This document shows, piece by piece, positions 29,034 through 62,965 of a DNA stretch of 64,000 nt. The notes beneath the pieces are model-generated. The model did not search any database. It was not told the origin of the DNA and was given only the letters and a program-made list of their open reading frames with translations. The position numbers and the translations under genes are program-made. The stretch's first letter is position 1; every line of letters begins with the position of its first letter. Origin of the DNA: Candidatus Aminicenantes bacterium UBA2190 (GTDB lineage Bacteria; Acidobacteriota; Aminicenantia; UBA2199); the NCBI GenBank assembly GCA_002335385.1, contig DCVK01000021.1, positions 137,635 to 201,634 of the forward strand, read 5' to 3'.

Positions 29034-29054
29034 TCAGGACTCAAGCGGACCTTC

Positions 29055-29243
29055 GTGACGCGTAACACGTGACGCGTAACGCGGAAGAAATCAAATTCCA
29101 AATCACAAGCACCAAATTCCAAATAAATCTCAATTTCCAAATTCCAATGACCCAAACGAAGGCCCCTTTGGATTCATTTCTTTGTTTTGGTCATTGGTGC
29201 TTGGAGCTTGTTTGTTATTTGGTGCTTGGAATTTGGTGCTTTA
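29055..29243. repeat. heptamer module CGTGACG/CGTAACA plus a ~155-bp imperfect hairpin built from ACCAAAT/TCCAAAT tandem units (B-type, copy 1)
   Basis: Left arm ...CAATTTCCAAATTCCAATGACCCAAACGAAGGCCCCTTTGG, loop, right arm TTTCTTTGTTTTGGTCATTGGTGCTTGG...TTGGAATTTGGTG. Lies at the convergent junction of thiS and the YkgJ gene. Confidence 0.65.
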
Positions 29244-29275
29244 GTCCAACCTGACTGTCGAGTTTAGTGACTCCT

Positions 29276-46797: not shown

Positions 46798-47061
46798 ATG
46801 CAATAGTCCGGGATGACGCGGTTATTTTTACAGCCATGATGTGTCCCGCATTAGCGAACGAAACGGAGGGATCGGGTCCCGACCCGGGGAGCGCCGATGG
46901 CCGAAGGTAAAATGGCCACTGTTTGAGTCCCGCGCCAGCGGGACGAGTCGGCCATTTTAATCGGCGCGAAACGCGGTCGGTCGGTCCCGGAGTGGTGAGC
47001 GTTGCGGGACCATCAGGGCGCATTCACTGTGTCGTGCACCGGCGATCGGCTTGGTGATATA

Positions 47062-50000: not shown

Positions 50001-50253
50001 GCCCCGGGAGATGGAAAAGATCTTCTACGTGGGCGCGGTGAAGCTGTTCGCCCGCCAATGCGGCTGGCGCAAGGCCGAGGTTTTCGCCGACCGCGTGCAG
50101 TTCGACGCCGGCCGCGAGACGGCGCTGCCGGCGGGCAGGGCCTTCGTCGTGCCGGGGCTGAAGCATCTGGAGGGCGGCAACTTCGAGCTGGAGTTCTCCG
50201 GGCTGGACGGGTTTCTGGCGCTCGAGAAAGGGCTCAAGAGGCTATTCCAATAA
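47062..50253 (+). CDS. mfd: transcription-repair coupling factor Mfd
   Basis: RNAP-interacting, UvrB-homology, and superfamily-2 helicase motifs (Walker A GDVSFGKTEV, DEEQRFG, TRG-like C-terminus). Start could be 47071 if the mRNA is leaderless (see findings). Confidence 0.9.
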   Translation: MKLMVETLFSPVFWQKLDSRRRRIEVASIDREARELAVAAVFVHFNESVVWLVGENEPLEEKKEKLAQWLKLLGNEGAPIHSHLLPFEDPYINAVADPRRIADKQRLQVDMAAGSKMIVLSTPAALSIRLERPGGRDKALQLGAGDLWERGELIEKLTALGYQARAAVEIAGDLAWRGNVLDVFPVAGEQPVRLEFEGRRLASLRTFDLESQRSTGTIAAVLVGENRYASGSAGADAAFLTDLLPGCRLLASNWRRLEDEYGKLLDNFRRIREAVAGRRGKVPEVGELFPFPVAAQRLIDLADFAADPRALPEVRVLPKALAGLNDDDIGDLQRRSEHGWRLLAFAADARLLENLRVRLPRLECHFFNIPCSFENPLLRLACLTGRNFLLPAREEPARRVPAEEELREMAEGDWVVHRRHGIGRFAGFTRLRLEGAAGEFLKIEYLDREYLYVPLHELEVLKRYSGSEGAAPALDRLGGRTWQAKTARARKAIVQYTRELLDLYAMRKSVRKTALAAVPELEEKLQQDFRFVETEDQKQAIARVLADMEADFPMDRLVCGDVSFGKTEVALRAALRAMANGRQAAFLCPTTILALQHFRNFERRLAAFPLRLGMLSRLVSGAGKKRVLAGLKSGAIDLVVGTHSLLASGVEFKRLGLFIVDEEQRFGVFQKEKLKKGRENIDVLTLSATPIPRTLSMAMSGLQDISLIQSPPLGRLAIRNYVGLFSRQVVVSAVLNEVERDGAVFVVHNNIEHIFRFRDQLASWLPDVPIVVIHAQMPTAAIEKNLMDFIAGKFRVLLSTTIIENGIDIPRVNTMIVLNADRLGLTQMYQLRGRIGRSTRQAYAYFLVDDRKGGVSELAKKRLAGIREFSELGAGYKLAEFDLHLRGAGALLGNRQHGHVEALGYDYFLELLRQTIRGLKGDTSEERELALRVHFPYAVGEDYIAGTAERIAAYRRVLEAGDAFELRALRDELGDRYGQMPREMEKIFYVGAVKLFARQCGWRKAEVFADRVQFDAGRETALPAGRAFVVPGLKHLEGGNFELEFSGLDGFLALEKGLKRLFQ

Positions 50254-50257
50254 TTAA

Positions 50258-50430
50258 GTGACAGTGTCAGTGTCAGCAGGAAGCATTCAGGGCAATCAAT
50301 GACAGGGAAAGTTTAAGTGTTTGCAGGAGGTTCAAGAAGTCAAAAATAAAGCGAAAGTCAGCGGAAATTATTGGCCTTAAAGGATTTCGGTTATTTCTCT
50401 TGCTGACACTGTCACTGACACTGACACTGT
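50258..50430. repeat. inverted pair of E-type (CTGACA)n hexamer arrays flanking a ~115-bp spacer
   Basis: 50258-50280 GTGACAGTGTCAGTGTCAGCAGG in reverse orientation. 50397-50430 CTTGCTGACACTGTCACTGACACTGACACTGTTA forward. Lies between convergent mfd and a small minus-strand gene. Confidence 0.65.
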
Positions 50431-50447
50431 TACCGGAACTGGAAGAG

Positions 50448-50810
50448 CTAAGGCTTGGTGATCTCCAGGGTCTCCTTCTGCAGTCCGTGCTTCGGGCACT
50501 TCCTGAGGACGCGGATCTCCCCCTTGTCCTTTCCGGTCAAGGAGACGACCAGGTCGAGCCGGTAGACGCCTTCCTCCGTCAGTTCCCACTGGCCCCGCTT
50601 TTCGATCTTCAGCCCTTCCGTTTCCAGGATCGTCTCCGCGATGGCTACCGGGCAGCGCCGGTGTATGCACTCGACGAACAATTTCACCTGGAACTGGTCC
50701 GCTTTGCCCTTGACCAGCGGTCCGGTCTCGCTGTAGACGTAGCAGGGAAGCAGTTGCGACATGCTCCCCATGACCAGCAGCGTCATTATCAATAATATGG
50801 GTCGTTTCAT
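50448..50810 (-). CDS. small secreted/lipoprotein-like Cys-containing hypothetical protein
   Basis: Signal peptide MKRPILLIMTLLVMGSMSQLLPC. 120 aa with 4 Cys. Confidence 0.5.
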   Translation of the reverse strand: MKRPILLIMTLLVMGSMSQLLPCYVYSETGPLVKGKADQFQVKLFVECIHRRCPVAIAETILETEGLKIEKRGQWELTEEGVYRLDLVVSLTGKDKGEIRVLRKCPKHGLQKETLEITKP

Positions 50811-50861
50811 GTTATTCCTTATACGTTAGACAATTGCGTCCGATTTTTCTTGCGTTCCAGA

Positions 50862-50980
50862 GAGTGTCAGTGACAGTGTCAGTGCCAGCAAGAGAAGCGA
50901 ACGAAATCGGAAAATATAGCAACCAATTCATTTTTTTCTTGCTGTCACTGCCACTGACACTGTCACTGTCAGTGGCAATA
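50862..50980. repeat. E-type palindromic element: reversed (CTGACA)n arm, ~45-bp spacer, forward arm
   Basis: AGTGTCAGTGACAGTGTCAGTGCCAGCAAGAG...TTTCTTGCTGTCACTGCCACTGACACTGTCACTGTCAGTGGC. Imperfect ~30-bp arms. Confidence 0.65.
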
Positions 50981-50990
50981 CGTTGAATTG

Positions 50991-51797
50991 CTATTCCTTC
51001 AGCCTGACCCATATCCCGGCCGCGGCGTCCTCTTCGTCGCGGCGCACCTCGAAGTCGGGGAGCGACTTGATCAGCGACGACAGCTGGCGCTGGCCGAAGC
51101 TGCGCGGGTCGAAGCCGGGGTCGAGCTGCTGCAGCGCCTTGCCCATCGGCCCCAGGTTGGCCCAGCCGTTCTCCTGCACCGCCATCTCGAAGGCTTCGCG
51201 CAGCAGCGGCATGGGATCGGTGCCGGCGTAGAGCGCCTGCGGCGGCGGTGGCGGTTGCGGCGGCTGCTCCTGCGGCCCCGTCTTGCGGCTGCCGCCGCGG
51301 CCGCGGTCGCGCCCGCGCTCCTGGCGCTGCTGGCTTTCGCGGCGCGGCGCCAGGTTCTCGGTGTAGATGAAGATATCGCAGGCGTTGACGAACGACTTGG
51401 GGGTCTTTTTCTGGCCGATGCCCATGACGAAGAAGCCCTCCTCGCGGATGCGCGTCGCCAGGCGCGTGTAGTCGCTGTCCGAGGAGATGATGCAGAAGCC
51501 CTCGACGAAGCGGCGGTGCATGATGTCCATGGCGTCGATGATCAGGGCGCTGTCGGTGGCGTTCTTGCCCACGGTGTAGCGGAACTGCTGGATGGGCTGC
51601 ACGGCGTGCATGTGCAGCGCCTCCTTCCAGGAGTGCATGCTGGACGTGGTCCAGTCGCCGTAGATGCGGCGGATGGTCACCGATCCGTGCTTGCCCACTT
51701 CGGCCAGCATCTTGGGCAGCAGCGAGGCCTGGGCGTTGTCGCCGTCGATGAGGACGGCCATCTTGGTGTCCTTGTTTTCTATGTTGGGTTGAGCCAT
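50991..51797 (-). CDS. NYN-domain (PIN-like nuclease) protein with C-terminal OST-HTH/LOTUS domain
   Basis: VLIDGDNA...RIYGDW NYN signature with Asp cluster. Gln/Pro-rich linker, then a LOTUS-like helical C-terminus (LLREAFEMAV...LIKSLPDFEV). Confidence 0.75.
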   Translation of the reverse strand: MAQPNIENKDTKMAVLIDGDNAQASLLPKMLAEVGKHGSVTIRRIYGDWTTSSMHSWKEALHMHAVQPIQQFRYTVGKNATDSALIIDAMDIMHRRFVEGFCIISSDSDYTRLATRIREEGFFVMGIGQKKTPKSFVNACDIFIYTENLAPRRESQQRQERGRDRGRGGSRKTGPQEQPPQPPPPPQALYAGTDPMPLLREAFEMAVQENGWANLGPMGKALQQLDPGFDPRSFGQRQLSSLIKSLPDFEVRRDEEDAAAGIWVRLKE

Positions 51798-51885
51798 TTT
51801 CTCTCCACTAGGTCATTGGCTAATGATTTACTGTAACAGAGATGGGGAGTTTAGTCAAGCTGGGGGGCGGCGTAAGGCGAAGCTC

Positions 51886-51998
51886 AGGGAAAGGCAGAGG
51901 GAAGAGAGAGGGAAGAGAGAGTGGAAAGGCCCTTTCAGGACATCTTTCCCACTTCGTCTTCCCTCTGTCTTTCCCTCACTCTTCCCTCATTCTTCCCT
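51886..51998. repeat. D-type 11-mer (GGGAAGGCAGA / GGGAAGAGAGA) tandem-repeat hairpin
   Basis: Forward arm of ~4 units. Loop CCCTTTCAGGACAT. Reverse-complement arm CTTTCCCACTTCGTCTTCCCTCTGTCTTTCCCTCACTCTTCCC. Lies between the 3' end of the DUF5916 gene and the start of the NYN gene. Confidence 0.65.
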
Positions 51999-52004
51999 GC
52001 ATTT

Positions 52005-54626
52005 CTATAGATTGAAATTGTAGGTGAACTTCACCAGGAACACGTTTGTCGACGGCAGGCGCATCAGGTCGCTGAAGCCGCCGGCCACGTCGAACTCGCC
52101 GCGGCCCAGGTCGCCGGAGCGGCCCTGGCTCCAGACCGCGTACAGGGCGGCTCCCGGGCGGTACTCCCAGCGCAGCACCAGGTTGGAGCGCAGCTCGAGA
52201 ACGCGGAAGTCGGGGTTGGCGAAGGAGTAGACAGCGCCGCCCGCCTCGTTCACCAGGTAGTTGCCGCCCTCGGGGTCGAGGCTGATTTCGCCGGCGGCGA
52301 AGGGGCGCAGCTGGTCGTGGATCGAGCCGGCGCGGGGATCGACGACGCGGCGGAAGCCGGCGTAGCGGCCGTTGCTCAGGAAGGGCTGGCCGTAAAACTG
52401 GATGGAGAGGTCGGGGGTGAGGCAGTAGTTCAGGCGCAGGGTCACGTAGTAGGTGTCCTGCTCGATCGTGCCCAGGATATAGCGGCTCTCGCCGCCGATC
52501 TCGGGGGCGGCCACGTACTGCCTGAGGTTGCGGTTGTAGGAGTAGCCGGGAGTGACGCGCAGCGACAGGCGGCTGCCCGGGCGGTAGGCCAGGGCCAGGC
52601 TGGCCCCGCCGCTCTCGCGCGTGTCGTGATCGGCCCGGTAGATCGAGCCGCTCAGCGAGGCCACGAAGGGGCGGCGCGAGTCGCTGCCCAGGCCGTACCA
52701 GACGTTCCAGCCGGGATCAAAGCGCAGCGCCGGGCCGCCGCGCAGGGCGCCGGGCGAGAGGTTGGGCCCCTGGCGGTTGATGCCGGCGTTGACGCTCCAG
52801 TAGTTCTTCAGCTCGCCCCAGAAATTGACGTTGCCGCCGACGAAGATCGGCTCCATGCCGAAGTCGTATCCCTTCCAGCCGTTGAGGTTGATGCCCAGTT
52901 GGTTGAAGATCCAGGTCGGCTTGCGGATGCGGTAGCCGGCCCAGCCCCAGGCCATGGCGGCGTCGCTCCTCCCCAGGTAGCCCATGTCGTTGAGCTCCAG
53001 GCCAGGCGAGCGCCAGGTCAGGCCTCCGGCCCAGTTGATCCCGGTCCCGGCGCTGCGCCCCAGCTCCAGGTTGCCGCCCCAGCCGCCAAGCGAGGTGCGC
53101 GTCGGGTCGAATTCCAGGTAGTCGGCGTCAGGACGCTGAAAGTAGCGGACCGGGGACTTCTGCGTGCGCTCGATCGCCTCGGCGTTTCCTCGCACCAGGC
53201 TGAAGACGGTCTTGGCCGAGACGTGGAAGCGGCGGTTCTTCCAGCTGTGGTAGATGTCGACGCCGCCGCTGTAGGCCTGGCGGTGGAGGAAGTCGAGCTG
53301 CGGGTCGCTGATGTCGCGGTGGACCGCGGTGACCATGGCGCCGAGCACGGTCTTGCCCTCGTTGAGATCCTGCTGGGCGCGCAGCATGAAGTAGTTGGTC
53401 AGCGGTTCCACCGTCTCGTTGCGGTTCCCGCCCGAAAAGGCGATGGCTGCGCTCTCGCGGGCGGTCAGCGCGTCCAGCACGCCGAGCGACAGGCCGCGGC
53501 GCGTCTTGCCGGTGACCTTGAAGGCGCCCAGGATCGAGGTCGCCGTGGGCATGTCGAGGTACTCGCCGGGGCCGGTCTCTGGCCAATGGCGCGGGGCGCG
53601 GCCGACGCGGCGCGAGTAGAAGAGGTTGTCCATGCTGAAGTCGCCGTCGCCGCCCATGATCTGGAAATTCAGGATGCTCTTGCCTTCGGTGAAGAAGGGG
53701 CGCTTCTCCTGGAAGAAGGTCTCGTAGGCCGTCAGGTTGACCACCGAGGGGTCGGCCTCGACCTGGCCGAAATCGGGGTTGAGGGTGAAGTCGAGGGTCA
53801 GGTCGCTGCTCAGACCGACCTTGCCGTCGAGACCGCCGAGCAGGGCGCCGCTGCGGCCGTCGGCGAACGGGTTGCCCGCCTGGCGCGGCGACAGCGTTGC
53901 CTGTGCCACGGTGTAGGGGACGATCTCCACCTGGTGCTGGGCGCGGATGCCCTTCAGCCCCTCGAGAACGCCGAAACTGCTGACGAACCCCGGCGCCTCC
54001 TTGGGGATGTACTGCCAGGAGGAGATCTCCTGCCGGCGGTGGAGCAGGCGCCGCACCTGGAAGCCGAAGGCGACGTTTTCGCCCGCGGCGAAGCGCAGCT
54101 GGCTGAAGGGGATGGCCATCTCGGCCGTCCAGCCGCGGTCGTCCATGGCGGCGGCCGCGTCCCAGACCGGGTCCCAGGTGGAGTCCTGGTTGTTGCTGTC
54201 GCCCGAGAGGGTGACGTCGGCCTTGACGCCGGCGGCGTTGACCTTGAAGCCCAGGGCGGTGCGCTTGTCGAAGTAGCTGTCGATCAGGACCGCCACGTAG
54301 TCGCCGTCGATCTCGTCGCGGCGCGAGATGCGGCGCCCGATCTTTCCCGACTCGTTGTCGTGGCAGCGGACCAGCACGTACAGGTGCTTGTCGTCGAACA
54401 TCACCTTGAACTCGGTGGGCTCGCCCGGGGCGGCGCCGCAGTCGGGCTCGCTCTGGGTGAAGCCGCCGCTCCACTCTGCCTTCTGCCAGCAAGGGTCGTC
54501 GCCGCGGCCGTCGATCGCCGGCGCGTGGGGATTGATATGCTTGCAGGTGTAGACTTTCTTTTCCGCGGCGTCGAGCGCCGCCAGGCCCAGCAGGGCCATC
54601 AACAACGCGAACAGCGCTTTCTTCAT
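52005..54626 (-). CDS. large secreted outer-membrane-associated protein, DUF5916 / carbohydrate-binding (CBM9-like) family
   Basis: Signal peptide MKKALFALLMALLGLAALDA with GGAGG RBS. About 870 aa with a C-terminal beta-barrel-like region ending in aromatic-rich ...VKFTYNFNL. The ORF-track N-terminal extension beyond 54626 is repeat-derived and spurious. Confidence 0.7.
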   Translation of the reverse strand: MKKALFALLMALLGLAALDAAEKKVYTCKHINPHAPAIDGRGDDPCWQKAEWSGGFTQSEPDCGAAPGEPTEFKVMFDDKHLYVLVRCHDNESGKIGRRISRRDEIDGDYVAVLIDSYFDKRTALGFKVNAAGVKADVTLSGDSNNQDSTWDPVWDAAAAMDDRGWTAEMAIPFSQLRFAAGENVAFGFQVRRLLHRRQEISSWQYIPKEAPGFVSSFGVLEGLKGIRAQHQVEIVPYTVAQATLSPRQAGNPFADGRSGALLGGLDGKVGLSSDLTLDFTLNPDFGQVEADPSVVNLTAYETFFQEKRPFFTEGKSILNFQIMGGDGDFSMDNLFYSRRVGRAPRHWPETGPGEYLDMPTATSILGAFKVTGKTRRGLSLGVLDALTARESAAIAFSGGNRNETVEPLTNYFMLRAQQDLNEGKTVLGAMVTAVHRDISDPQLDFLHRQAYSGGVDIYHSWKNRRFHVSAKTVFSLVRGNAEAIERTQKSPVRYFQRPDADYLEFDPTRTSLGGWGGNLELGRSAGTGINWAGGLTWRSPGLELNDMGYLGRSDAAMAWGWAGYRIRKPTWIFNQLGINLNGWKGYDFGMEPIFVGGNVNFWGELKNYWSVNAGINRQGPNLSPGALRGGPALRFDPGWNVWYGLGSDSRRPFVASLSGSIYRADHDTRESGGASLALAYRPGSRLSLRVTPGYSYNRNLRQYVAAPEIGGESRYILGTIEQDTYYVTLRLNYCLTPDLSIQFYGQPFLSNGRYAGFRRVVDPRAGSIHDQLRPFAAGEISLDPEGGNYLVNEAGGAVYSFANPDFRVLELRSNLVLRWEYRPGAALYAVWSQGRSGDLGRGEFDVAGGFSDLMRLPSTNVFLVKFTYNFNL

Positions 54627-54708
54627 CGTCGTCCTCCTCGGGATCGGGATCGTACCTGCCTGGTAATACTTGGGATTGGGGGGAGAGGTAACAGGAAAGC
54701 CAGTCCAG

Positions 54709-54845
54709 TCACAGTGACGAGTGACAAGTGACGAGTGACGAGGAGCGGGCAAAGAAGAGAGACTCAAGGGAAGGCAGAGGGAAGGCAGAGGGAAGAAGGA
54801 GGGAAGAGAGAGTGGGAAAAGCGGGAAGCGGAGGGAAAAGAGGAT
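54709..54845. repeat. AGTGACG heptamer x4 (I-type) followed by D-type GGGAAGGCAGA 11-mer x4
   Basis: CACAGTGACGAGTGACAAGTGACGAGTGACGAGG...AAGGGAAGGCAGAGGGAAGGCAGAGGGAAGAAGGAGGGAAGAGAGAG. Single arms upstream of gene 54921. Confidence 0.6.
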
Positions 54846-54920
54846 GTCGGGAGGCCCGGGATCAGGACTTTCATTATTTCCGGTTCGGGAGTACCATCTT
54901 GCCGGCAAGGAGGAACACGA

Positions 54921-55193
54921 ATGGCTTATGAAGCGGAAGGAAGAAAGATCGCCGCCGACCTGCGTGCGCAGTGCGGCAAGCTGCTGGAGGCGCGCCTGGA
55001 GTCGAAGAGCCCCAGCCGCATCGTCCTGGCCTTCGAGAAACAGACCATCACCCTGCCGGGCAATTTCATTTTCCAGTTCGGCTATGCGGGATCCGGGCCC
55101 GATTGCTTTCACGCGTTCCTCCAGGAGTCGGGTTTCAGCGTGACCAAGGAGCAGGTCACCGGGGCCAAAGAGGGCGATATTCTGAAGCCCTGA
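54921..55193 (+). CDS. small hypothetical protein (90 aa)
   Basis: AAGGAGG RBS 7 nt upstream. No recognisable motif. Confidence 0.5.
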   Translation: MAYEAEGRKIAADLRAQCGKLLEARLESKSPSRIVLAFEKQTITLPGNFIFQFGYAGSGPDCFHAFLQESGFSVTKEQVTGAKEGDILKP

Positions 55194-55204
55194 AAGAAAA
55201 GATC

Positions 55205-55337
55205 TTCTAAAGGCAAAAGGCCAAAGGAAAAAGGCAAAAGTGAAGAAAGATATCTATCGAGTGCTCTCTGCAACCACTATCACTACCGCTCAAGTCTCGT
55301 TTGCTTTCTTGCTGACACTGACACTGTCACTGACACT
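55205..55337. repeat. A-type AAGGCAAAAG module, F-type CCACTA hexamer x4 module, and E-type (CTGACA)4 module in series
   Basis: AGGCAAAAGGCCAAAGGAAAAAGGCAAAAGTGAAG ... CAACCACTATCACTACCGCT ... CTTGCTGACACTGACACTGTCACTGACACT. The E module ends 21 nt before the RBS of gene 55359. Confidence 0.65.
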
Positions 55338-55358
55338 TAGAATAAATAAGGAGGAATC

Positions 55359-56072
55359 ATGGATCCGCTGGTCAGCCAGGTACGCCGGGAGCTGAGGGAG
55401 AATACCGACGAGAAGAAGCGCCGGGGGGCCCAGGCCTATTTCAAGGAGGGGGTGACCTGCCTGGGCGTGGGCACGGCGACCGTTCACCGCATCGCCCGGG
55501 AGAGGATCGCCGATCTCAAGGGCATGACCAAGGGGGAGGTCTTCGGGCTGTGCGAGGAGCTGTGGCGCGCGGGGAGCCTCGAGGAGACGATCGTGGCCTG
55601 CGACTGGTCGTACTTCATCCGCCGGCAATACGTCCCCGGGGACATCACGGTGTTTGCCGGGTGGGTCGGCAAATACGTGAACAATTGGGCGTCATGCGAC
55701 ACGCTGTGCAATCACTCGGTCGGGGAACTCCTGGAGATGTACCCGGAGCGCGTGGCCGATCTGAAGCAATGGGCCCGGTCGAGGAACCGCTGGCTGCGGC
55801 GCGGGGCCGCCGTGTCGCTGATCATCCCGGCCAAGAAGGGAAAGTTCCCGGACGACGTCATGCAGATCGCCGACATCCTGCTCGAAGATCCGGACGACCT
55901 GGTGCAGAAGGGCTACGGCTGGATGCTGAAGGTGGCCAGCCAGGCGCGGCAGAAGGAGATCTATGCCTACGTGATGCGCAACAAAGCGGCCATGCCGCGA
56001 ACGGCCCTGCGCTATGCCATCGAGAAGATGCCGGCCGAATTGAAACGGCGGGCGATGAAGAAGCAGGCATGA
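55359..56072 (+). CDS. DNA alkylation repair enzyme (AlkD/AlkC-like HEAT-repeat glycosylase family)
   Basis: N-terminal ...RGAQAYFKEG...GVGTATVHRIARE typical of PF08713. HEAT-like helical repeats throughout. Confidence 0.75.
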   Translation: MDPLVSQVRRELRENTDEKKRRGAQAYFKEGVTCLGVGTATVHRIARERIADLKGMTKGEVFGLCEELWRAGSLEETIVACDWSYFIRRQYVPGDITVFAGWVGKYVNNWASCDTLCNHSVGELLEMYPERVADLKQWARSRNRWLRRGAAVSLIIPAKKGKFPDDVMQIADILLEDPDDLVQKGYGWMLKVASQARQKEIYAYVMRNKAAMPRTALRYAIEKMPAELKRRAMKKQA

Positions 56073-56083
56073 AGGGAAGTTCT

Positions 56084-56225
56084 CAAGGGAAGGCAGAGGA
56101 AAGAAACAGATGAGGTTCGAAGTTCGACGTTCGACGTTTAAGAATAAAGCGAGAGGAGAAAGGCTATAACACTTGGATCTCGCTTATGTTCTTGCTGACA
56201 CGGACACTGCCACTGACACTGTCCT
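56084..56225. repeat. D-type unit, C-type GTTCGAA/GTTCGAC heptamer x4, and E-type (CTGACA)n module
   Basis: CTCAAGGGAAGGCAGAGG ... GAGGTTCGAAGTTCGACGTTCGACGTTT ... CTTGCTGACACGGACACTGCCACTGACACTGTCC. A TATAAT box (56248-56253) lies between the E module and the RBS of gene 56297. Confidence 0.65.
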
Positions 56226-56296
56226 GAAATAAAATCCATTTCCGCATATAATGCTGGCGTGCTCCGCTCCCGGGGGCGGGGAACAAGGAGGAGCAA

Positions 56297-56857
56297 ATGG
56301 TGACATTGTTTTCATTGTGGCTGCCGATCGTCGTGGCGGCCGTTGTCGTGTTCATCGCCAGCTCGGTCATCCACATGGCGCTGCCCTGGCACAAGAAGGA
56401 CATGATCAAGGTGCCCGGGGAGGACGAGGTGCGCGAGGCGCTGCGCAAGTTCGCCATCCCGCCCGGGGACTACGGCGTCCCCCACGCCGGCTCGATGAAG
56501 GAGGGGAGCTCGCCGGAGTTCACCGCCAAGCTGAACGAGGGGCCGGTGCTGTTCATGTCGGTGGCCAGGAACGGCCCGCCCAACATGGCGCTCAGCTTCG
56601 TCTTCTGGTTCCTCTACTTGCTGGTCGTCGGCAAGCTCACGGCCTACGTCGCCTGCCTGGCGCTGCCCGCCGGCGCCGCCTTCCTGCCTGTCTTCCGTCT
56701 CACCGGCGCTGTGGCCTTCGCCGGTTACTCCCTGGCCCTGCTGCAGCGGCCCATCTGGTACGGCGGCAGCTGGTGCGCGACCCTCAAGTCGGTGTTCGAC
56801 GGCCTGGTCTACGCTTTGCTGACCGCCGCCGTCTTCGGCTGGCTGTGGCCGCGCTGA
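56297..56857 (+). CDS. hypothetical integral membrane protein
   Basis: About 5 predicted TM segments. GGAGG RBS. Confidence 0.5.
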
Positions 56858-56906
56858 GGTGCTTCGGGCATATCTTGTAAACGATACCGGACAATAATCA
56901 GATAAC

Positions 56907-57028
56907 GGGAGGGTTTGAAACCCTCCCCTACGTGAAGATGTTTCTTTTCCTCCTGCAACCACTACCACTATCACTACCACTGATACCTGTAATGCCTCTT
57001 GCTGACACTGACACTGTCACTGACACTG
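56907..57028. repeat. J-type hairpin GGGAGGGTTTGAAACCCTCCC+CTACGTGAAGA, F-type (CCACTA)4, and E-type (CTGACA)4 modules
   Basis: Stem-7/loop-7 hairpin followed by the CTACGTGAAGA tail, as at 57850-57881. The F and E modules are near-identical to those at 55268-55337. Followed by TTGACG...TATATAAT promoter-like boxes before gene 57100. Confidence 0.65.
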
Positions 57029-57099
57029 TTTAGTTGACGCGGTCATACAATGATGCTATATAATAATAACGATGAATTAACGCATCGGGGAGGTGTATC

Positions 57100-57327
57100 A
57101 TGGTCAAGACGCTCAGCAAGCACGGCAACAGCCTGGCCCTGGTCATCGAGAAGCCGGTGCTCGAGCTGCTGGGCGCCGACGCCGCCACTCCCTTCGAAGT
57201 GACCACCGACGGCCGGGCGCTGGTGCTGACGCCGGTGCTCGACCCGCAACGGCAAAAGCGCTTTGCCGCGGCCCTGGACAAGGCGAACAAGAAATATCCC
57301 CGGGCGTTGAAGAAGCTGGCCGAATAG
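57100..57327 (+). CDS. AbrB/MazE/SpoVT-family antitoxin (Phd-like partner of Doc)
   Basis: 75 aa. Swapped-hairpin motif region KHGNSLALVIEKPVLELLG. Stop overlaps the Doc start (TAGATG). Confidence 0.75.
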   Translation: MVKTLSKHGNSLALVIEKPVLELLGADAATPFEVTTDGRALVLTPVLDPQRQKRFAAALDKANKKYPRALKKLAE

Positions 57328-57735
57328 ATGGCCGGCCCCGTTTTCCTGACTTTGGCCGAGGTGTTGGAGATCCATCGCGACCAGATCGGTCGTTACGGGG
57401 GCAGGGAGGGAATCCGCGACCTGGAGCTGCTGCAATCGGCGCTGGCCGTTCCCGCGGCTTCCTTCGCCGGCGGATTCCTGCATGAGGGCCTGCCGGAGAT
57501 GGCCGTCGCATACCTGTTCCACATCGTCCGCGACCATCCCTTCATCGACGGCAACAAGCGCACGGGGGCGGTGGCGGCGCTGGTTTTCCTGCTGCTCAAC
57601 GGCCATGAGCTCCGCGCCCCGGAAGACAAGCTGTTCGAGGCTGTCCTCGCCGTGGCCTCCGGGAAGATGTCCAAGGCCGAGCTGACCCTGTTCTTCCGCC
57701 GCTGGACGAAAAAAGGGCAGGGAAAGAAGAGATAG
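57328..57735 (+). CDS. doc: Doc (death-on-curing) toxin, Fic-fold kinase
   Basis: Fic/Doc motif HPFIDGNKRTG. About 135 aa. Confidence 0.9.
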   Translation: MAGPVFLTLAEVLEIHRDQIGRYGGREGIRDLELLQSALAVPAASFAGGFLHEGLPEMAVAYLFHIVRDHPFIDGNKRTGAVAALVFLLLNGHELRAPEDKLFEAVLAVASGKMSKAELTLFFRRWTKKGQGKKR

Positions 57736-57762
57736 GACGGGATTAGAACCTGTTTCCGCATC

Positions 57763-57945
57763 GGGCGGGCACGGGGGCCCGCCCCTACGGAAATATTGCG
57801 GCAGGCTTACACCCCAAGGAGGTTAAACCCTCCTTACATGGAAAAATGCGGGAGGGTCACAGACCCTCCCCTACGTGAAGAGACAATGGGAACCTGCCGG
57901 TGTAGTCCTCCAGCTCTTGCTGACACTGACACTGTCACTGACACT
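57763..57945. repeat. three consecutive GC-stem hairpins each followed by CTACG (J-type), then an E-type (CTGACA)4 module
   Basis: GGGCGGGCACGGGGGCCCGCCC-CTACGG. AAGGAGGTTAAACCCTCCTT. GGGAGGGTCACAGACCCTCCC-CTACGTGAAGA. CTTGCTGACACTGACACTGTCACTGACACT at 57915-57945. Confidence 0.65.
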
Positions 57946-58213
57946 TTCTTCAATATTTTGAATTTTTTATAACAAAATAAAATATCACATTTTTCCCTAT
58001 TGTCTCCTTGTCCGCCAAAAACTATAATTTTCTCTTGATCACCCGATGGACGCTAAAGGAATTCATCCTCCCCTGCGAAGCTTCCCCAGGCCACCGGCGG
58101 GAGCTTGGGAAAATATTAAGGAAAGCACCTTTAAATAAATCATATAAGCGGGGCGGCAGATGGATAGCGGATCAGCGGTCCGCCCCGAAAATTATTAGGA
58201 AGGAGGACAGGAA

Positions 58214-58627
58214 ATGTCTGAACAAATCAGGGTTCGTTGGGGCTGGCTCAAGGGAATGTATGTGTACACGATTGCTGTGGCGGGGTTTCTTGGCTTGGGA
58301 ATCATCGTCATGCCCGAAATGATCAGAACGAAGTTGCCATGGCCGGTTGCAGAACCAACGGCTTTCGGGGTTGTCGGCAGCATTTATGTGGCATGCGGAC
58401 TGCTGGCCATATTGGGACTGCGCTCTCCTCTCAAATTTGTGCCGCTTCTTTTGCTGCAGCTTTTCTACAAGTCCGTATGGTTCATCGGCGTCGCCTTGCC
58501 TCTCTGTGTCAGCGGCCATTTCCCGACTTATGCGCTGCCCATGGCGATCATCTTTGTAACGTTCATCATCGGAGATCTGATTGCAATACCTTTTTCATAT
58601 GTCTTTGCTAAAGAACCAAGTCAGTAA
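58214..58627 (+). CDS. hypothetical small membrane protein (4 TM)
   Basis: Hydrophobic helices. GGAAGGAGG RBS. Confidence 0.5.
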   Translation: MSEQIRVRWGWLKGMYVYTIAVAGFLGLGIIVMPEMIRTKLPWPVAEPTAFGVVGSIYVACGLLAILGLRSPLKFVPLLLLQLFYKSVWFIGVALPLCVSGHFPTYALPMAIIFVTFIIGDLIAIPFSYVFAKEPSQ

Positions 58628-58693
58628 AGGGCTGTTGGGGACGGAACGTTCCCCGGTTCTGTTCGTAGTAATGAGAACCAGATCAAGGATAAG

Positions 58694-59623
58694 GTGAACA
58701 TGAAAAGAGAATTCCGCATCGTTCTGCTGGCCGTGGTGATGGCGTCTGTCTTCTGGTTTGTCGGAGCGGAGGAAGAGCTCGTCGCTCCGCCTGCGCCCTA
58801 TTTCGGGCTGAAGGCGCCGGGAATGGTCCCGGAGGTGTTCGCCCCGGGAATCGTCTCGACCGGGCAGTTCGAGTTCGGGATTGCGTTTTCCCGGGATGGC
58901 AGGGAGTGCTTCTTCACCCGGCGCGCCACGTACGAGGGCGCGGACAACCGGATCTTGCGGACGCAAATGAGCGATAAAGGGTGGAGCCGCCCGGAGCCCG
59001 CCTCCTTCTCCCGCGACGTCTTCGAATTCCTCCCGGTCGTCTCGCCTGACGGCCGCCGGCTCTATTTCTATTCCGAGCGCCCCGAACCACCTGCGGATGC
59101 GGCGCTGGACGGAGATCTCTGGGTGACGGAGAAAGGGGAAACGGGCTGGGGCGATCCGCAGCGCCTGCGGGCGCCCGCCAACCGCAGGTATTGCATGATG
59201 GTCTCGGAGGCGAAGAGCGGGACGATCTATTTTTCAGGGATGTTCGCCGGGAAGAGGGGCATGTTCCGTGCCGCCTGCCAGGCGGGCGAGTATGGGGAAA
59301 TGGAACGCCTGCCCGAGGAGATCAATGCCATCCGGCCCGCCCACCCCTTCATCGCCCCCGATGAAAGCTACCTGATCATGGACGCCCAGGTAACGGGCAT
59401 GGGCCAGCCGGAACTCTTCATCAGTTTCCGCAAGGCGGACGGGAATTGGACTCGCGCGCTGAACATGGGGCAAGCGATCAACGCCACGAAGACCGAATTC
59501 GCCGCCAGCGTCTCACCCGACGGAAGATTCCTGTTCTTCCACCGTCGCGTGAACGGCAACGGGGATATCTACTGGGTCGATGCCGGGATCCTTGATGAAC
59601 TACGGGAAAAGATCAGGGACTAA
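58694..59623 (+). CDS. secreted TolB-like / WD40-like beta-propeller (PD40) repeat protein
   Basis: Signal peptide. Repeated ...SPDG(R)...F...FFxR/S... blades (SRDGRECFFT, SPDGRRLYFYS, SPDGRFLFFH). Confidence 0.6.
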   Translation: MNMKREFRIVLLAVVMASVFWFVGAEEELVAPPAPYFGLKAPGMVPEVFAPGIVSTGQFEFGIAFSRDGRECFFTRRATYEGADNRILRTQMSDKGWSRPEPASFSRDVFEFLPVVSPDGRRLYFYSERPEPPADAALDGDLWVTEKGETGWGDPQRLRAPANRRYCMMVSEAKSGTIYFSGMFAGKRGMFRAACQAGEYGEMERLPEEINAIRPAHPFIAPDESYLIMDAQVTGMGQPELFISFRKADGNWTRALNMGQAINATKTEFAASVSPDGRFLFFHRRVNGNGDIYWVDAGILDELREKIRD

Positions 59624-59815
59624 AGGGATGGACTGTTGATCCGATTATTCAAGGAAAGGATTAGGGACGGACGGCAACAAGGTAAGAACTAGAATGGAAC
59701 TCCGGGGCATGATCCGTAATCAGAGGGCATTTGGTGTAAGCATTATCGTATTCCTGCCATGAGAAAAAGTAATCATGCAAGACCTGTATTTCTTAATCCA
59801 AAGGGAGGCATCAAG

Positions 59816-60814
59816 ATGCGATTGATCTTCCTCGGCATTTTTTGCCTGGCGATCATCTTCTGTCCGGGCTTCGGGCAGAAAGACAAACCCGAAACGGAAG
59901 TGGGCTTTGCCGACGGCCACGTTCATGCCGGCTTTGCAAAAAAGGACGGCATCCTCGCCACGCGTTTCGCTTATTTCCAGCTCCAGGGCGTCAAGACCAT
60001 CTGCCTTTCCCTGCCGCTGGACAGTTCCAGGACCGCTGACCTGCGGGCGCGGATCAGCGGGGAGATCGCCGCGCTGCGCGAGCTCGCGAACAGGGAAAGG
60101 ACTTTCCGCCTGCTCCCGGGCGACGGCGGAACGCCGGGGCCGCCGGGGGAATTGGATGTGTTCCTGAGCGTGGAATATTTTCACGGCGCCTTCAACGGCG
60201 ACGCCGGCCTGGTGAACGCTTACAGGGACCTGGGCATCAGGGCTGTCACCCTCATCGACAATGACCGCGACCCGTTCTTTGCCGGGGGAGCGCTGACCCC
60301 GTTCGGGAAAAAGGTGATCGCCCTGATGGACGAATCGGGATTGCGGATCGACGTTTCACACCTGGACTCGGCCCAGAAGCTCGCGGTCATCGCGGCCGCC
60401 AAGTCGCCGGTCCTCGTTTCGCACACCAATGCGCGGAGCGTGGCCGATCTCGATTACAACATTCCGGATGAGGTCCTGGCGGCCTTGAAGAAGAACCGGG
60501 GCTCGGTCCTGGTCTCCTTCAACCGCAACGGCGTTTTCGCCGAAAACGGAGGGAGAAGCGGCGGCATCGCCCAACTGGCGGACCATATCGATCATTTCGT
60601 TGAATGGCTCGGCGTCGACCATGTCGGCATCGGCTCGGACTACCAGGCCGACGGCAGGTATGTGGCCGCGCCGCTGAACGAGCCCGACGCCTTCGGAAGG
60701 ATCGCCCGCGAGCTGGCCGGGCGCGGCCATGACGCGGCCGCGATCCATCAGATCATGTCCGCCAATGTCCGGCGATTATTTGGGGCTGGGGAAAAAGCGT
60801 ATAATTCGGAATAG
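59816..60814 (+). CDS. secreted membrane-dipeptidase (M19) family protein; second paralogue in window
   Basis: Signal peptide from the internal Met with AAGGGAGG RBS. HxH-type ligands (GHVHAGF), SHTNARSV, and GIGSDY motifs. Confidence 0.8.
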   Translation: MRLIFLGIFCLAIIFCPGFGQKDKPETEVGFADGHVHAGFAKKDGILATRFAYFQLQGVKTICLSLPLDSSRTADLRARISGEIAALRELANRERTFRLLPGDGGTPGPPGELDVFLSVEYFHGAFNGDAGLVNAYRDLGIRAVTLIDNDRDPFFAGGALTPFGKKVIALMDESGLRIDVSHLDSAQKLAVIAAAKSPVLVSHTNARSVADLDYNIPDEVLAALKKNRGSVLVSFNRNGVFAENGGRSGGIAQLADHIDHFVEWLGVDHVGIGSDYQADGRYVAAPLNEPDAFGRIARELAGRGHDAAAIHQIMSANVRRLFGAGEKAYNSE

Positions 60815-60862
60815 GCTGCACCTTCTCGAAGCAGCGCTGAAATAAAACCAGAGGAGACCGGA

Positions 60863-61516
60863 ATGGATTTTTATGAAGCGGTGAGGAAGCGGCGGACGGT
60901 CAGGGAGTTCGCGGACAGGGCGGTGCCCGAGGAAGCCCTGCGGCGGGCGCTGGCCGCGGGGCTGCGGGCGCCATGCAACGCCCACTTGAAGAGCTGGCAG
61001 TTCATCCTGCTCCGCGACCTGGAAAAGCGGGACAAGGCGGTCTTCGACGGACTGAAGGCCAGGGATATGAAGGATCCCGACGAGATCGAGCGCTTCGTCG
61101 CCCGCTTCGAGGAGCCGGAACTTAAAAAGGTCTACCGCCGCTCGCTGCCCCGGCAGCTGAGCATGATGCTGGAGGCGCCCGAGCTGCTGCTGGTGTGCTA
61201 CCGCATGAAGCCCCAGGACGAATGCCGCACCCTGTTCGAGCTGAACCCCCTGGCGTCGGCCTGGATGTGCATCGAGAACATCATGCTGGCACTGGCCGCC
61301 GAGGGGCTCTACGGCTGCACCTATACTCCCTACGAATCCAGGGGGCTGAAAAAGATGCTGGGCGTACCCGCGGGCTACGAGATCGCCGCGGTCATTCCTC
61401 TCGGCTATGCCGAGGAAGATCCCGGCGAGAACGAAACGGAGGACCTGGACGCGCGGCTGCACATTGACGGCTGGGAGCAGAAGACAGGGAGGAATGAGGG
61501 AAGCAGAAGCAAGTAA
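60863..61516 (+). CDS. nitroreductase-family (NADH-flavin oxidoreductase fold) protein
   Basis: RRTVREF N-terminal FMN-binding signature. Conserved ...IPLGYA... C-terminus. Confidence 0.85.
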   Translation: MDFYEAVRKRRTVREFADRAVPEEALRRALAAGLRAPCNAHLKSWQFILLRDLEKRDKAVFDGLKARDMKDPDEIERFVARFEEPELKKVYRRSLPRQLSMMLEAPELLLVCYRMKPQDECRTLFELNPLASAWMCIENIMLALAAEGLYGCTYTPYESRGLKKMLGVPAGYEIAAVIPLGYAEEDPGENETEDLDARLHIDGWEQKTGRNEGSRSK

Positions 61517-61548
61517 AAAGAACTTCCGCTCTTTCCCGAGGAGGAAAC

Positions 61549-62484
61549 ACGAAAAAAAAATTCGCATGGCCGCTGATCGCCGGGGCGCTTGTTCTCGCCG
61601 CCGCGGCAGGTTTTGCCCTAAGCGCGGGGAATGTCCCCGGCCGGGAAACGCTGCGCCTTGAAGTGGAGGCCGTCGCGCGGTCGATCGACGGCAAGCTGGG
61701 AGTGGCCATGTTGGGGCTGGAAACGCGGGAGAGCTTCCCGTTCAACGGAGACCACCGTTTCCCGATGCAGAGCGTCTACAAGTTTCCCCTGGCCATGGCC
61801 GTGCTCGAGTTGGTGGACAAGGGCCGGCTCTCCCTGGGCCAGGCCGTTCGCGTGGCCCCTGCCGACCTCCTGCCCGATACCTGGAGCCCGCTGCGCGACG
61901 CGAACCCAAGGGGCGATTTCGATCTCGCCCTGAGCGAGCTGCTGCGAGTCACCGTGTCCGAGAGCGACAACAACGGCTGCGATATCCTTTTCCGCATGCT
62001 GGGCGGCCCGGCGGCGGTCGACGCCTACGTCCGCGGTCTCGGCGTAGAAGGCATGGCCATCGCCGCCACCGAGGAGGAAATGCACCGCGTCCGCGATTCG
62101 CAGTTCAGCAACTGGTGCGAGCCGGCCGCCATGGCGCGGCTGCTCGACCTCTTTTTCCAGGGCGGGACCCATGCCGTTGCCAGCCGCGATTTCCTGATGC
62201 GGCTGATGATGGAGACCGCCACCGGACCCAAGCGCATCAAGGGCTTGCTGCCCTTGGGGACGCCGGTGGCCCACAAGACCGGTACGTCGTTCACCGATGA
62301 AAAAGGGTTGACGGCGGCCACCAACGACGTCGGCATCGTCACCCTGCCCGACGGGAGCCATGTCGCCATGGTCATTTTCCTGGCCGACTCCTCCGCCTCG
62401 CCGGAGGCCCGGGAAAACGCGATCGCCCGCGTCGCCCGGGCCGGGTTTGATTACTTCGCGGCGGCGAAACCCGGGAAAGAGTAG
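61549..62484 (+). CDS. bla: class A beta-lactamase; no canonical start codon in frame with its signal peptide
   Basis: S-x-x-K (SVYKF), SDN (SESDNN), E166-like EEEM, and KTG (HKTGTS) all present. The signal peptide KKKFAWPLIAGALVLAAAAGFALSA is in frame but preceded only by ACG at 61549, 4 nt after GAGGAGG. The first canonical start is GTG 61663, after the signal peptide. Confidence 0.75.
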   Translation, partial: TKKKFAWPLIAGALVLAAAAGFALSAGNVPGRETLRLEVEAVARSIDGKLGVAMLGLETRESFPFNGDHRFPMQSVYKFPLAMAVLELVDKGRLSLGQAVRVAPADLLPDTWSPLRDANPRGDFDLALSELLRVTVSESDNNGCDILFRMLGGPAAVDAYVRGLGVEGMAIAATEEEMHRVRDSQFSNWCEPAAMARLLDLFFQGGTHAVASRDFLMRLMMETATGPKRIKGLLPLGTPVAHKTGTSFTDEKGLTAATNDVGIVTLPDGSHVAMVIFLADSSASPEARENAIARVARAGFDYFAAAKPGKE

Positions 62485-62581
62485 GAGATTTTTGTCCGTT
62501 TCCGGGGTTTCGATTATGGATATTCGGATAATTTTGAAGTGAAGACGAAGATCGGCCCATGGCCGTTCAGGAAGGAGAACG

Positions 62582-62854
62582 ATGCTATACATGGCATATG
62601 AGAAATTCAAGGCGGCCGGGGCCAAAGAGGTCTATCGCCGATCGCGGGAAAAAGGCAGGATGCTGCCCCAAGGGCTGAATTATGTCTCAAGCTGGGTGGA
62701 CCTGGAGTTCAGCAGATGCTTTCAACTTATGGAGACCGAGGACTTTTCGCTGTTTTCAAAATGGACCAGCCAATGGCGGGACCTGGTGGAATTCGAGATC
62801 ATTCCGGTCAGGACATCGGCTGAAGCGATGACTTTGATGGAGCCGACCTTATGA
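62582..62854 (+). CDS. small hypothetical protein (DUF3303-like)
   Basis: 90 aa. N-terminal MLYMAYEKFK resembles the DUF3303 start. Weak support. Confidence 0.4.
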   Translation: MLYMAYEKFKAAGAKEVYRRSREKGRMLPQGLNYVSSWVDLEFSRCFQLMETEDFSLFSKWTSQWRDLVEFEIIPVRTSAEAMTLMEPTL

Positions 62855-62965
62855 ACGTGATAAAGTTTTCAGACACGTCTTGCTTTATGACCTTTCAAAA
62901 TTTGTAAAGTAAGGGACAGGAGGAGACGAATCCCTCCGCCCGGCAGCCCAGTGAAGGAGGTTCTC

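Follow-up and report, generated by a model that had tools for sequence, protein, structure and literature searches.

The tract downstream of the mfd gene in Candidatus Aminicenantes bacterium UBA2190 was analyzed within a stretch of 64,000 nucleotides (nt) of contig DCVK01000021.1. This whole stretch is called the window here, and its positions 50,254-62,484 were under study. The host is an Aminicenantes genome, class Aminicenantia, Acidobacteriota, and the organism is present in methanogenic hydrocarbon enrichments. The tract is probably a native, lineage-conserved chromosomal hotspot of gene flux with lineage-wide polar repeat modules, and neither an integron nor an imported island. The most interesting content of the region is these lineage-wide polar repeat modules. 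The original prediction regarded the tract as an islet of accessory genes assembled gene by gene at repeat elements; its observation was partly confirmed and its interpretation partly supported.

Relatives were located via AlkD, beta-lactamase and Doc homologues, and their gene contexts were then read. The contigs or loci compared with the window are numbered L001, L003, L097, L101, L117, L118, L120, L128, and L202-L206, and the metagenome-assembled genomes (MAGs) of relatives were read as 8-20 kb pieces. The closest relative was Ca. Aminicenantes UBA2199 (L120), which showed 89.7-95% nt identity in conserved window genes. Gene families were assigned by Pfam and NCBIfam profile searches.

Polar repeat modules at gene boundaries

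Each module was composed of a head, i.e., CTTGCTG, CCTGCTA or CCTGCAA, and 3-6 NCACTN hexamers. Sister arrays were built of 7-mers (AGTGACG, AAAGGCA, GTTCGAC, AGTGAAA, and others) or of the 11-mer AGGGAAGGCAG. In the window, the hexamer-array pattern was matched 23 times against 0.02 expected, and the 31-mer TCTTGCTGACACTGACACTGTCACTGACACT was found in 6 copies at ≤3 mismatches (0.00 expected). The original prediction held that each gene is separated by repeat-laden spacers. This was true for 50,254-58,213, where 24.9% of the DNA was intergenic and tandem arrays made up 24.4% of the intergenic bases, but not for 58,214-64,000. In core spacers of the window, arrays accounted for 5-10%. Arrays were also found beside housekeeping genes at 26.9, 27.0, 29.1, and 46.6-46.8 kb.

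In species-representative genomes, a scan with a degenerate pattern, using one genome per species, detected more than 106 module stretches. About 96 were in 14 MAGs labelled as Ca. Aminicenantes or Acidobacteriota, or in two mislabelled bins that carry the genes of this window. The CTTGCTG head with NCACTN hexamers was seen on many contigs of at least 14 Aminicenantes MAGs. Because the pattern is concentrated in Aminicenantes MAGs, the repeats are a dispersed element of the lineage and do not belong to the islet as such. Among 2.9 million viral contigs, the pattern occurred in only 2.

The arrays were counted in ~776 kb of Aminicenantes loci. There were 260 CAC-hexamer arrays, and 94% of them were intergenic in DNA that is only 20% intergenic. 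The tail lay nearer to a gene in 145 cases vs 22 (p = 2e-23), and the rule held for 71/78 when each spacer contributed one array to the count. The same orientation was found in an independent set, i.e., the window and the relatives selected by protein (23 vs 7). In the window itself, 7/8 CTGACA modules pointed their tail to a gene, with the copy at 57915-57945 as the exception. Tails lay a median of 36 nt from stop codons and 88 nt from start codons, and the head was ~240 nt from the next gene. Neighbouring arrays were direct in 94 cases, head-to-head in 25, and never tail-to-tail. Neighbours belonged to the same family in 80% of head-to-head cases but in 26% of direct ones (Fisher p = 1e-6).

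When all tandem arrays of the independent set were read toward the nearest gene, C exceeded G in 58 vs 17, and the non-CAC arrays alone gave 37 vs 10. In distant high-GC control loci, 8 arrays were found in 221 kb and no strand bias was seen. Whole spacer halves showed a modest purine excess when read away from genes, 55-60% in the first 60 nt past stops; the array-level C>G test is more informative than this excess.

The folding potential depended on the arrangement. Head-to-head pairs folded at -49 to -66 kcal/mol with z of -4.7 to -7.5 on either strand, whereas direct series were unstructured (z +1.1 and -2.3). The pair between the NYN and 120-amino-acid (aa) genes formed a long imperfect hairpin of -51.9 and -49.2 kcal/mol (z -6.7 and -5.6), and the palindrome at 51883-51998 folded at -65.6 kcal/mol (z -4.9). 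The array at 54713-54843 is the inverted partner of 51958-51998. Between convergent thiS-like and CxxCxxCC genes at 29040-29270, a palindrome of ~180 nt made of CAAATTC/TTGGAAT-type arrays folded at -57.7 kcal/mol (z -7.5). The array system is therefore at work among the housekeeping genes of the window as well.

In orthologous spacers, the position, head and polarity of arrays were kept, and the unit sequence could differ. The module at the mfd 3' end was also present in L097 and L117, and UBA2199 has a different hexamer family there, with GTGGTT/GTGATA units in place of the GTGACA/GTGTCA of the window. Beside the poly(A) polymerase gene, the unit was AGTGAAA in the window and AGTGATT in relatives. 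Both arms of the NYN/120-aa hairpin were of the TCACTA family in UBA2199, i.e., the family was switched jointly. The 30-nt consensus module was identical between species whose genes are 80-90% identical, and heads and linkers were conserved.

The repeats are not an assembly artefact, because contigs from at least 10 independent metagenomes matched the window at 99.7-100% through the repeats. Several of the matching contigs stopped exactly at a repeat, and the repeat is therefore multi-copy in the genome. Since modules break short-read assemblies, the gene content of Aminicenantes MAGs near them is likely under-assembled.

In the modules, the strand rich in C runs toward the nearest gene, and each transcription unit is therefore bracketed, with tails in and heads out. 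Adjacent units would be parted by a head-to-head pair that folds into a long hairpin, or by successive modules that differ from one another and have no structure. The primary role of the modules may be to mark or insulate the boundaries of transcription units. In head-to-head pairs, the hairpin would have a terminating or stabilising effect. A direct series would be one of the C-rich, G-poor, unstructured Rho-loading tracts against transcription entering a gene. Canonical intrinsic terminators were not enriched (17 vs 14.2 expected), which leaves room for a role of modules in boundary formation or termination. If the polarity holds genome-wide, the modules would be a boundary marker of transcription units that is readable from sequence in an uncultured lineage, and a rare case of dispersed repeats oriented by genes and not by replication. 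Such an orientation would speak for a role tied to transcription, e.g., in termination, insulation or mRNA stability. A wider proposal is that Aminicenantia possess an undescribed genome-wide system of polar boundary modules, which brackets and insulates transcription units by hairpins or Rho-loading tracts and also provides the exchange points of an integrase-independent cassette economy, with the tract downstream of mfd as its most active site. We regard this proposal as quite unlikely.

Two other roles were considered and rejected. CTGACA is similar to a -35 box, and the last hexamer of a module is part of one predicted promoter; as sigma-70 promoters, however, the modules do not fit, since other families are unlike the -35 box and many modules face the 3' ends of genes. 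Terminal inverted repeats of cassettes were also rejected, because the modules flanking one gene often differ in family and only adjacent head-to-head neighbours match.

Gene flux between relatives

The original prediction also proposed that the tract was assembled gene by gene, and the content downstream of mfd did change gene by gene among relatives. They differed in the tract by single-gene insertions or deletions, one inversion, and one duplication. The baseline, i.e., 25.3-34.3 and 40.75-46.6 kb, was colinear in all relatives whose contigs reach it, at 72-87% nt identity.

UBA2199 keeps the order mfd, 120-aa gene, NYN, DUF5916, 90-aa gene, AlkD, and 186-aa gene, and the aligned genes of 50.4-56.9 kb showed 89.7-92% nt identity. 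This backbone order was also partly kept in L117, L118, and L203. UBA2199 has two extra genes, i.e., ABC_trans_aux between the 90-aa gene and AlkD and an acetyltransferase between AlkD and the 186-aa gene; it lacks phd-doc and continues differently past the 186-aa gene. In L117, DUF5916 was present only as a 3' remnant, and a histone-deacetylase gene replaces the rest, with the breakpoint inside DUF5916. At the AlkD start of the same locus, an insertion of ~1.07 kb with the 137-aa gene was flanked by the 13-nt duplication ATGGATCCGCnGG. In L118, the NYN-120-aa block was inverted, and five other genes precede DUF5916. The 120-aa gene was missing in L097 and L128, and in L128 the stops of mfd and NYN abut.

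The 137-aa unit is duplicated, with a second copy of 97% identity 7.4 kb downstream on L001, just outside the window, and it was found at other positions in L117, L120, and L204. The 458-bp duplication formed by the two gene copies flanks the 7.4-kb segment. On L001, the genes past the S41 peptidase gene are a 118-aa gene, OmdA/DUF8412, and the second copy. Loci L202-L204 showed the same plus-strand tract with common landmarks (OmdA, PD40, M19, nitroreductase, bla, SHOCT-Cu-ATPase, BsuPI, flavodoxin, PPIase, and PDZ) and many interspersed differences. The four-gene block of PD40, M19 dipeptidase, nitroreductase and beta-lactamase genes was 96% nt identical and colinear in UBA6072.

The stretch past mfd appears to be the start of a long plus-strand tract in which most transcription units consist of one gene. 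Its variation among relatives involves insertion, loss, duplication or inversion of individual genes or small units. Landmark genes (NYN, DUF5916, 90-aa gene, AlkD, OmdA, PD40-M19-nitroreductase-bla, SHOCT-Cu-ATPase, and others) recur in varying combinations, with blocks keeping their order. The exchanged units were probably drawn from the gene pool of the lineage itself and not from foreign mobile elements, and no integron machinery would be involved.

The clearest junction was found at phd-doc. The unit is bounded by the CTGACA modules 56997-57027 and 57915-57945, which are identical over 31 nt. L203 has the empty site, i.e., the REP-like hairpin (REP, repetitive extragenic palindromic), the CCACTA module, the linker, and one CTGACA module, followed by an AT-rich promoter region. 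The left part of this site is shared by the window, which past the second CTGACA module resumes with the AT-rich region of L203. In UBA2199, there is no CTGACA module, and the junction lies at a CACT microhomology. Because phd-doc is bounded by identical modules and a relative has the empty site, repeats can act as points of recombination or insertion. The idea that the repeats may be recombination or insertion hotspots gained support from this case only in part, since several junctions were repeat-free. The identical direct 31-mers at 55307, 56997, and 57915 are 0.8-0.9 kb apart, and recombination between them may plausibly delete further single genes.

In L205 and L206, the phd-doc unit occurred in other contexts at 80-84% nt identity. 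The CTGACA modules were absent there, and L206 has GTAG-palindromes on both sides. REP-like hairpins in the window were only found around phd-doc, and more copies were present in 8 distinct loci of relatives. The REP layout was seen in this minor element only, and the dominant CTGACA modules differ from it. Because GTAG-palindromes surround phd-doc in the window and in L206, the lineage may have a transposase system of the RAYT type (REP-associated tyrosine transposase); no Y1_Tnp domain was found among the genes listed in the fetched loci, which were 8-20 kb pieces and not whole genomes. The modules, together with adjacent REP-like hairpins, may provide scattered short stretches of homology, through which units are gained or lost by RecA-type or microhomology recombination. 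The region would then show a unit-by-unit turnover of a tract via short dispersed homologies, without integron or transposon machinery.

Competing explanations and known systems

The absence of an integron integrase and of attC sites had been pointed out before, and both statements were borne out. The only tyrosine recombinase of the window is XerD at 18328-19254, 31 kb from the tract. It scored 337.6 with the XerD equivalog TIGR02225 (cut-off 329.6) and 132 with the integron-integrase model (cut-off 265). The gene sits among housekeeping genes, i.e., phosphoglycerate mutase and an MBL-fold hydrolase. No RYYYAAC...GTTRRRY pairs were found in 50254-64000 or in the whole window (0.8 expected), where the search covered the core-pair pattern and attC sites recognizable only by structure were not scored. 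Among the Pfam families of genes called in ~20 kb around the tracts of seven relatives, no integrase or transposase domain was found. The window had no tRNA genes or Rfam families, and megablast detected no similarity to plasmids or phages. An integron, or a cluster of attC sites lacking integron-integrases (CALIN), was rejected, as the recombinase is XerD and not IntI and attC cores are missing.

Codon usage was compared with 32 core genes of the window. In the tract, 13/15 genes, including phd and doc, showed z of -1.6 to +1.3; the outliers were the 137-aa gene (-4.9) and DUF3303 (-3.9). The composition is thus native, the tract was not absent as a block in relatives, and no tRNA or integrase was found at a border. 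The word island, in the sense of imported DNA, was therefore not upheld by native codons in 13/15 genes and the backbone order kept in UBA2199, and an imported island was rejected on these grounds. Codon usage and synteny had been proposed as the refuting comparison, and the outcome was split. The former refutes a foreign origin, whereas the latter does not refute a variable region. The true foreign, strain-specific island of the window is the 6.4-kb segment 34290-40750, which encodes an alpha/beta hydrolase, TetR, a 390-aa protein, two outer-membrane beta-barrels, and two small open reading frames (ORFs). Its genes showed codon z of -2.8 to -4.0 and G+C at third codon positions of 0.62-0.68, and its spacers have no tandem arrays. 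The segment was absent in 5/5 relatives, where the methylmalonyl-CoA mutase gene adjoins kdsA directly.

Three other explanations of the tract have to be weighed against these results. A classical genomic island, or a degenerate integron, that entered by horizontal transfer in one piece and decayed afterwards would account for the accessory-looking content (toxin-antitoxin, beta-lactamase, nitroreductase, and orphans), the co-orientation of genes, and the conserved mfd gene adjoining it. It conflicts with the native codons, the conserved backbone order, the 80-90% identity of beta-lactamase, AlkD and Doc orthologues throughout the lineage, the missing machinery and similarities mentioned above, and the contrast to the true island at 34.3-40.75 kb, and is extremely improbable. 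A variable region of ordinary kind was also considered, in which neutral or selfish repeats, i.e., slippage-prone DNA or elements like miniature inverted-repeat transposable elements, accumulate in long spacers without a role and polarity is only the tolerated orientation. The different units in orthologous spacers of close species are what slippage-driven concerted evolution predicts, and the missing mfd/NYN spacer in L128, the array-free short spacers of the right half, and the several junctions unconnected with repeats agree with it. However, the polarity is very strong and independent of family, tail-to-tail pairs are absent, the same-family rule is limited to head-to-head neighbours, heads and linkers are conserved across species, and both arms of the NYN/120-aa hairpin switched family jointly. 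Polarity, the pairing rule, conserved heads, and the joint switch would hardly arise unless structure or strand were under selection, and this explanation is rather unlikely.

In the remaining explanation, the modules, with or without REP-like hairpins, are dedicated attC-like sites, and a lineage-specific recombinase encoded elsewhere moves single-gene units. The phd-doc unit between identical 31-nt modules with its matching empty site, the REP-like GTAG-palindromes flanking phd-doc in other contexts, the four different positions of the 137-aa unit, and the consensus module identical across species whose genes are 80-90% identical all speak for such cassettes, as do small co-oriented genes and a toxin-antitoxin pair as in chromosomal integron arrays. 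But XerD is the sole recombinase of the window, no integrase or transposase domain was listed in ~20 kb around seven relatives, and modules occur genome-wide and flank housekeeping genes, mfd and poly(A) polymerase among them. Most junctions are away from modules, phd-doc of L205 and L206 lacks CTGACA modules, the two sides of a gene often carry modules of different families, and the head-to-head pairing rule indicates an intergenic hairpin and not cassette ends. Dedicated cassette sites are thus very doubtful.

The preferred reading, i.e., a native flux hotspot with polar modules, has its own weak points, and the following results weigh against it. Only one insertion or deletion has ends defined by modules. 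The other junctions lay inside a gene, at the 13-nt duplication, or at the 458-bp duplicated gene, and in two cases the entire spacer was simply non-homologous. The right part, 58,214-64,000, was 8.5% intergenic with short spacers and 0% arrays. L128 has no mfd/NYN spacer at all, and modules are therefore dispensable there. L003 has a chimeric copy of the 137-aa gene, and the intervening 7.4-kb genes are missing; this may be an assembly collapse instead of a deletion allele. Most synteny comparisons used MAG or metagenome contigs, which are prone to breaking at repeats, and the synteny baseline was only the ~20 kb of neighbouring core. Loci selected by repeats were biased toward the CTGACA family, though not toward any orientation. 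The function of the modules is inferred from sequence patterns.

Several known systems resemble the tract or its repeats. Like sedentary chromosomal integrons and CALINs, the tract has small genes in a common orientation, many of them with no assigned function, a toxin-antitoxin pair, imperfect palindromes between genes, and gene-by-gene variation among relatives. Unlike them, it has only XerD, no R/L-box attC cores, left-half units with their own promoter-like boxes, and native codons, and its repeats are genome-wide tandem hexamer arrays that also occur at housekeeping genes. With chromosomal hotspots of gene gain and loss between core genes, the tract shares variable content between conserved anchors, a lack of mobile-element genes, and turnover via recombination. 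Unlike typical hotspots, the incoming genes here have the codon usage of the lineage, and at least one exchanged unit has repeat-defined ends.

REP and bacterial interspersed mosaic elements (BIMEs) of Enterobacteria and Pseudomonas, with their RAYT transposases, are short, dispersed, intergenic, high-copy sequences that form alternating clusters and hairpins at gene ends and are substrates of rearrangement. The modules are similarly short, dispersed, intergenic and hairpin-forming, and three hairpins of the window have the REP layout. However, the dominant modules are not self-complementary; they consist of a head and tandem hexamers, form hairpins only as head-to-head pairs, and belong to many unit families. 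The DNA uptake sequences of Neisseria and Haemophilus are dispersed, and their inverted pairs just downstream of genes form hairpin terminators. In contrast, the modules show no evidence of uptake; they are multi-family tandem arrays, and many stand upstream of promoters, singly or in direct series. The short tandemly repeated repetitive (STRR) sequences of heterocystous cyanobacteria are intergenic tandem repeats of usually 7 bp that can form hairpins; their function is unknown, and a role in transcript stability or in translational coupling has been proposed (PMC2670836). Like STRR sequences, the modules have tandem units of ~6-7 nt, were intergenic in 94% of 260 arrays, and occurred on many contigs of 14 MAGs. 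Unlike them, they belong to another phylum and have conserved heads and linkers and a strict polarity toward genes. We know of no report of gene-directed polarity for STRR sequences. In the literature, no paper joining Aminicenantes, intergenic and repeats was found, a full-text search gave no description of such repeats in Aminicenantes, and the hexamer string was found only in unrelated papers.

Genes and other elements of the window

The features of the tract are listed in the table. The gene list of the original prediction for 50,254-62,484 was correct, and every gene from 54.9 kb on is on the plus strand. The label of envelope stress for these genes was unsupported. Genes were also said to have their own -10 boxes, and promoter-like boxes were indeed found upstream of the 120-aa, NYN, 186-aa, phd, and 137-aa genes but not of the others; a consensus scan was weakly enriched (6 vs 3.0 +/- 1.5).

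Table. Positions in the window of the repeats and genes in and around the tract downstream of mfd (a dash inside a range joins first and last nt).
Feature	Position	Strand	Description
CTGACA-type module	50257-50281	-	Head CTGCTG and hexamers; 4 nt past mfd stop, tail toward mfd
CTGACA module	50398-50428	+	Tail 20 nt from 120-aa gene stop
Head-to-head CTGACA pair	50863-50970	50863-50893 -; 50937-50970 +	Between NYN stop and 120-aa start
Palindrome of 11-nt purine/pyrimidine arrays	51883-51998		AGGGAAGAGAG / CTCTTCCCTCT; DUF5916 stop to NYN start
7-mer array (AGTGACG), then 11-mer purine arrays	54713-54843	+	AGGGAAGGCAG; upstream of DUF5916 and 90-aa gene
Spacer with arrays and modules	55209-55337	+	(AAAGGCA)n, CCACTA-type module 55268-55290, CTGACA module 55307-55337
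Spacer with arrays and module	56073-56220	+	Purine 11-mer array, (GTTCGAC)n array, CTGACA module 56190-56220
Composite site	56907-57027		REP-like GTAG and GC-palindrome 56907-56931 (-), CCACTA module 56949-56981, 15-nt linker, CTGACA module 56997-57027
phd-doc unit	57028-57945	+	918 nt; TTGACG promoter-like box, phd, doc, two REP-like hairpins, second CTGACA module 57915-57945
REP-like hairpins	56907-56931, 57763-57788, 57850-57874	-	GTAG head and GC-rich palindrome; 3 vs 0.02 expected
mfd, transcription-repair coupling factor	47084-50253	+	Conserved left anchor; Pfam; orthologues in L117, L118, L120, L097, L128
120-aa protein	50448-50810	-	Signal peptide, four Cys, no family; in L117, L120
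NYN and OST-HTH/LOTUS protein	50991-51797	-	Orthologues 74-89% aa identity
CBM9 and DUF5916 protein	52005-54626	-	Outer-membrane type; Pfam/NCBIfam
90-aa orphan	54921-55193	+	96% aa identity in L117 and L120
AlkD-type DNA alkylation repair glycosylase	55359-56072	+	Orthologues 77-86%
186-aa membrane protein	56297-56857	+	No family; 93% in L120
phd-like antitoxin	57100-57327	+	75 aa; doc_partner model 28.1, below cut-off 55.9
doc toxin	57328-57735	+	Fic/DOC 2.2e-16; DOC_P1 55.7 vs cut-off 38.65
137-aa membrane-protein unit	58132-58650	+	Atypical codon usage, z -4.9
PD40, M19 dipeptidase, nitroreductase, class A beta-lactamase	58636-62463	+	Colinear 4-gene block, short array-free spacers
Class A (A2-like) beta-lactamase reading frame	61552-62484	+	ATG of relatives is AAA here
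DUF3303 protein	62582-62854	+	Atypical codon usage, z -3.9
S41 peptidase	62966-64000	+	Runs off window end

The tail of the CTGACA module at 55307-55337 lies 22 nt from the AlkD ATG. The phd stop and doc start abut (57327/57328), and a small antitoxin gene before Fic/Doc is the layout of type II toxin-antitoxin systems. The 90-aa orphan has no family, yet it is more conserved than most neighbours (83-93%; the exception was a poly(A) polymerase fragment of 95% in L117).

The beta-lactamase scored 274 with bla_class_A (cut-off 200) and 319.2 with subclass A2 (cut-off 320). At its start (61540-61570), relatives have GATGAGAAAATTC, whereas the window and the independent contig L001 have GAAAAAAAAATTC. 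Owing to this ATG to AAA change, the signal peptide is without a canonical start. The next canonical start, GTG at 61663, would yield a protein without signal peptide. The gene is a vertically inherited gene of the lineage with a lost start codon and not a mobile resistance cassette.

Two further dispersed elements were observed. The element TTGGGGACGGAnCGTTAAT..., at 58637-58660 of the window and in L101, L117, and L120, was placed directly 3' of the stops of several unrelated genes, and a ~45-nt version of it was found on both sides of the 137-aa gene in L117. A GC-rich element of ~165 nt at 46846-47010, upstream of mfd, was reversed in UBA2199 and L097 relative to the window and L117. It had no Rfam match and could be a small invertible or mobile element, or an RNA of undescribed kind.

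The mfd ORF opens at 47002, and relatives begin at ATGACGCAAACC (47084). In relatives, this start (window 47050-47090) is only ~7 nt past a TATAAT box. The short distance suggests that the mfd mRNA is leaderless or has a very short leader and that the mechanically called ORF, with its start at 47002, begins too far upstream. The window also has two M19 dipeptidase genes, at 30602-31723 (minus strand) and 59759-60814 (plus strand). Because they are only ~27% identical, they are old paralogues and not the product of a recent duplication.

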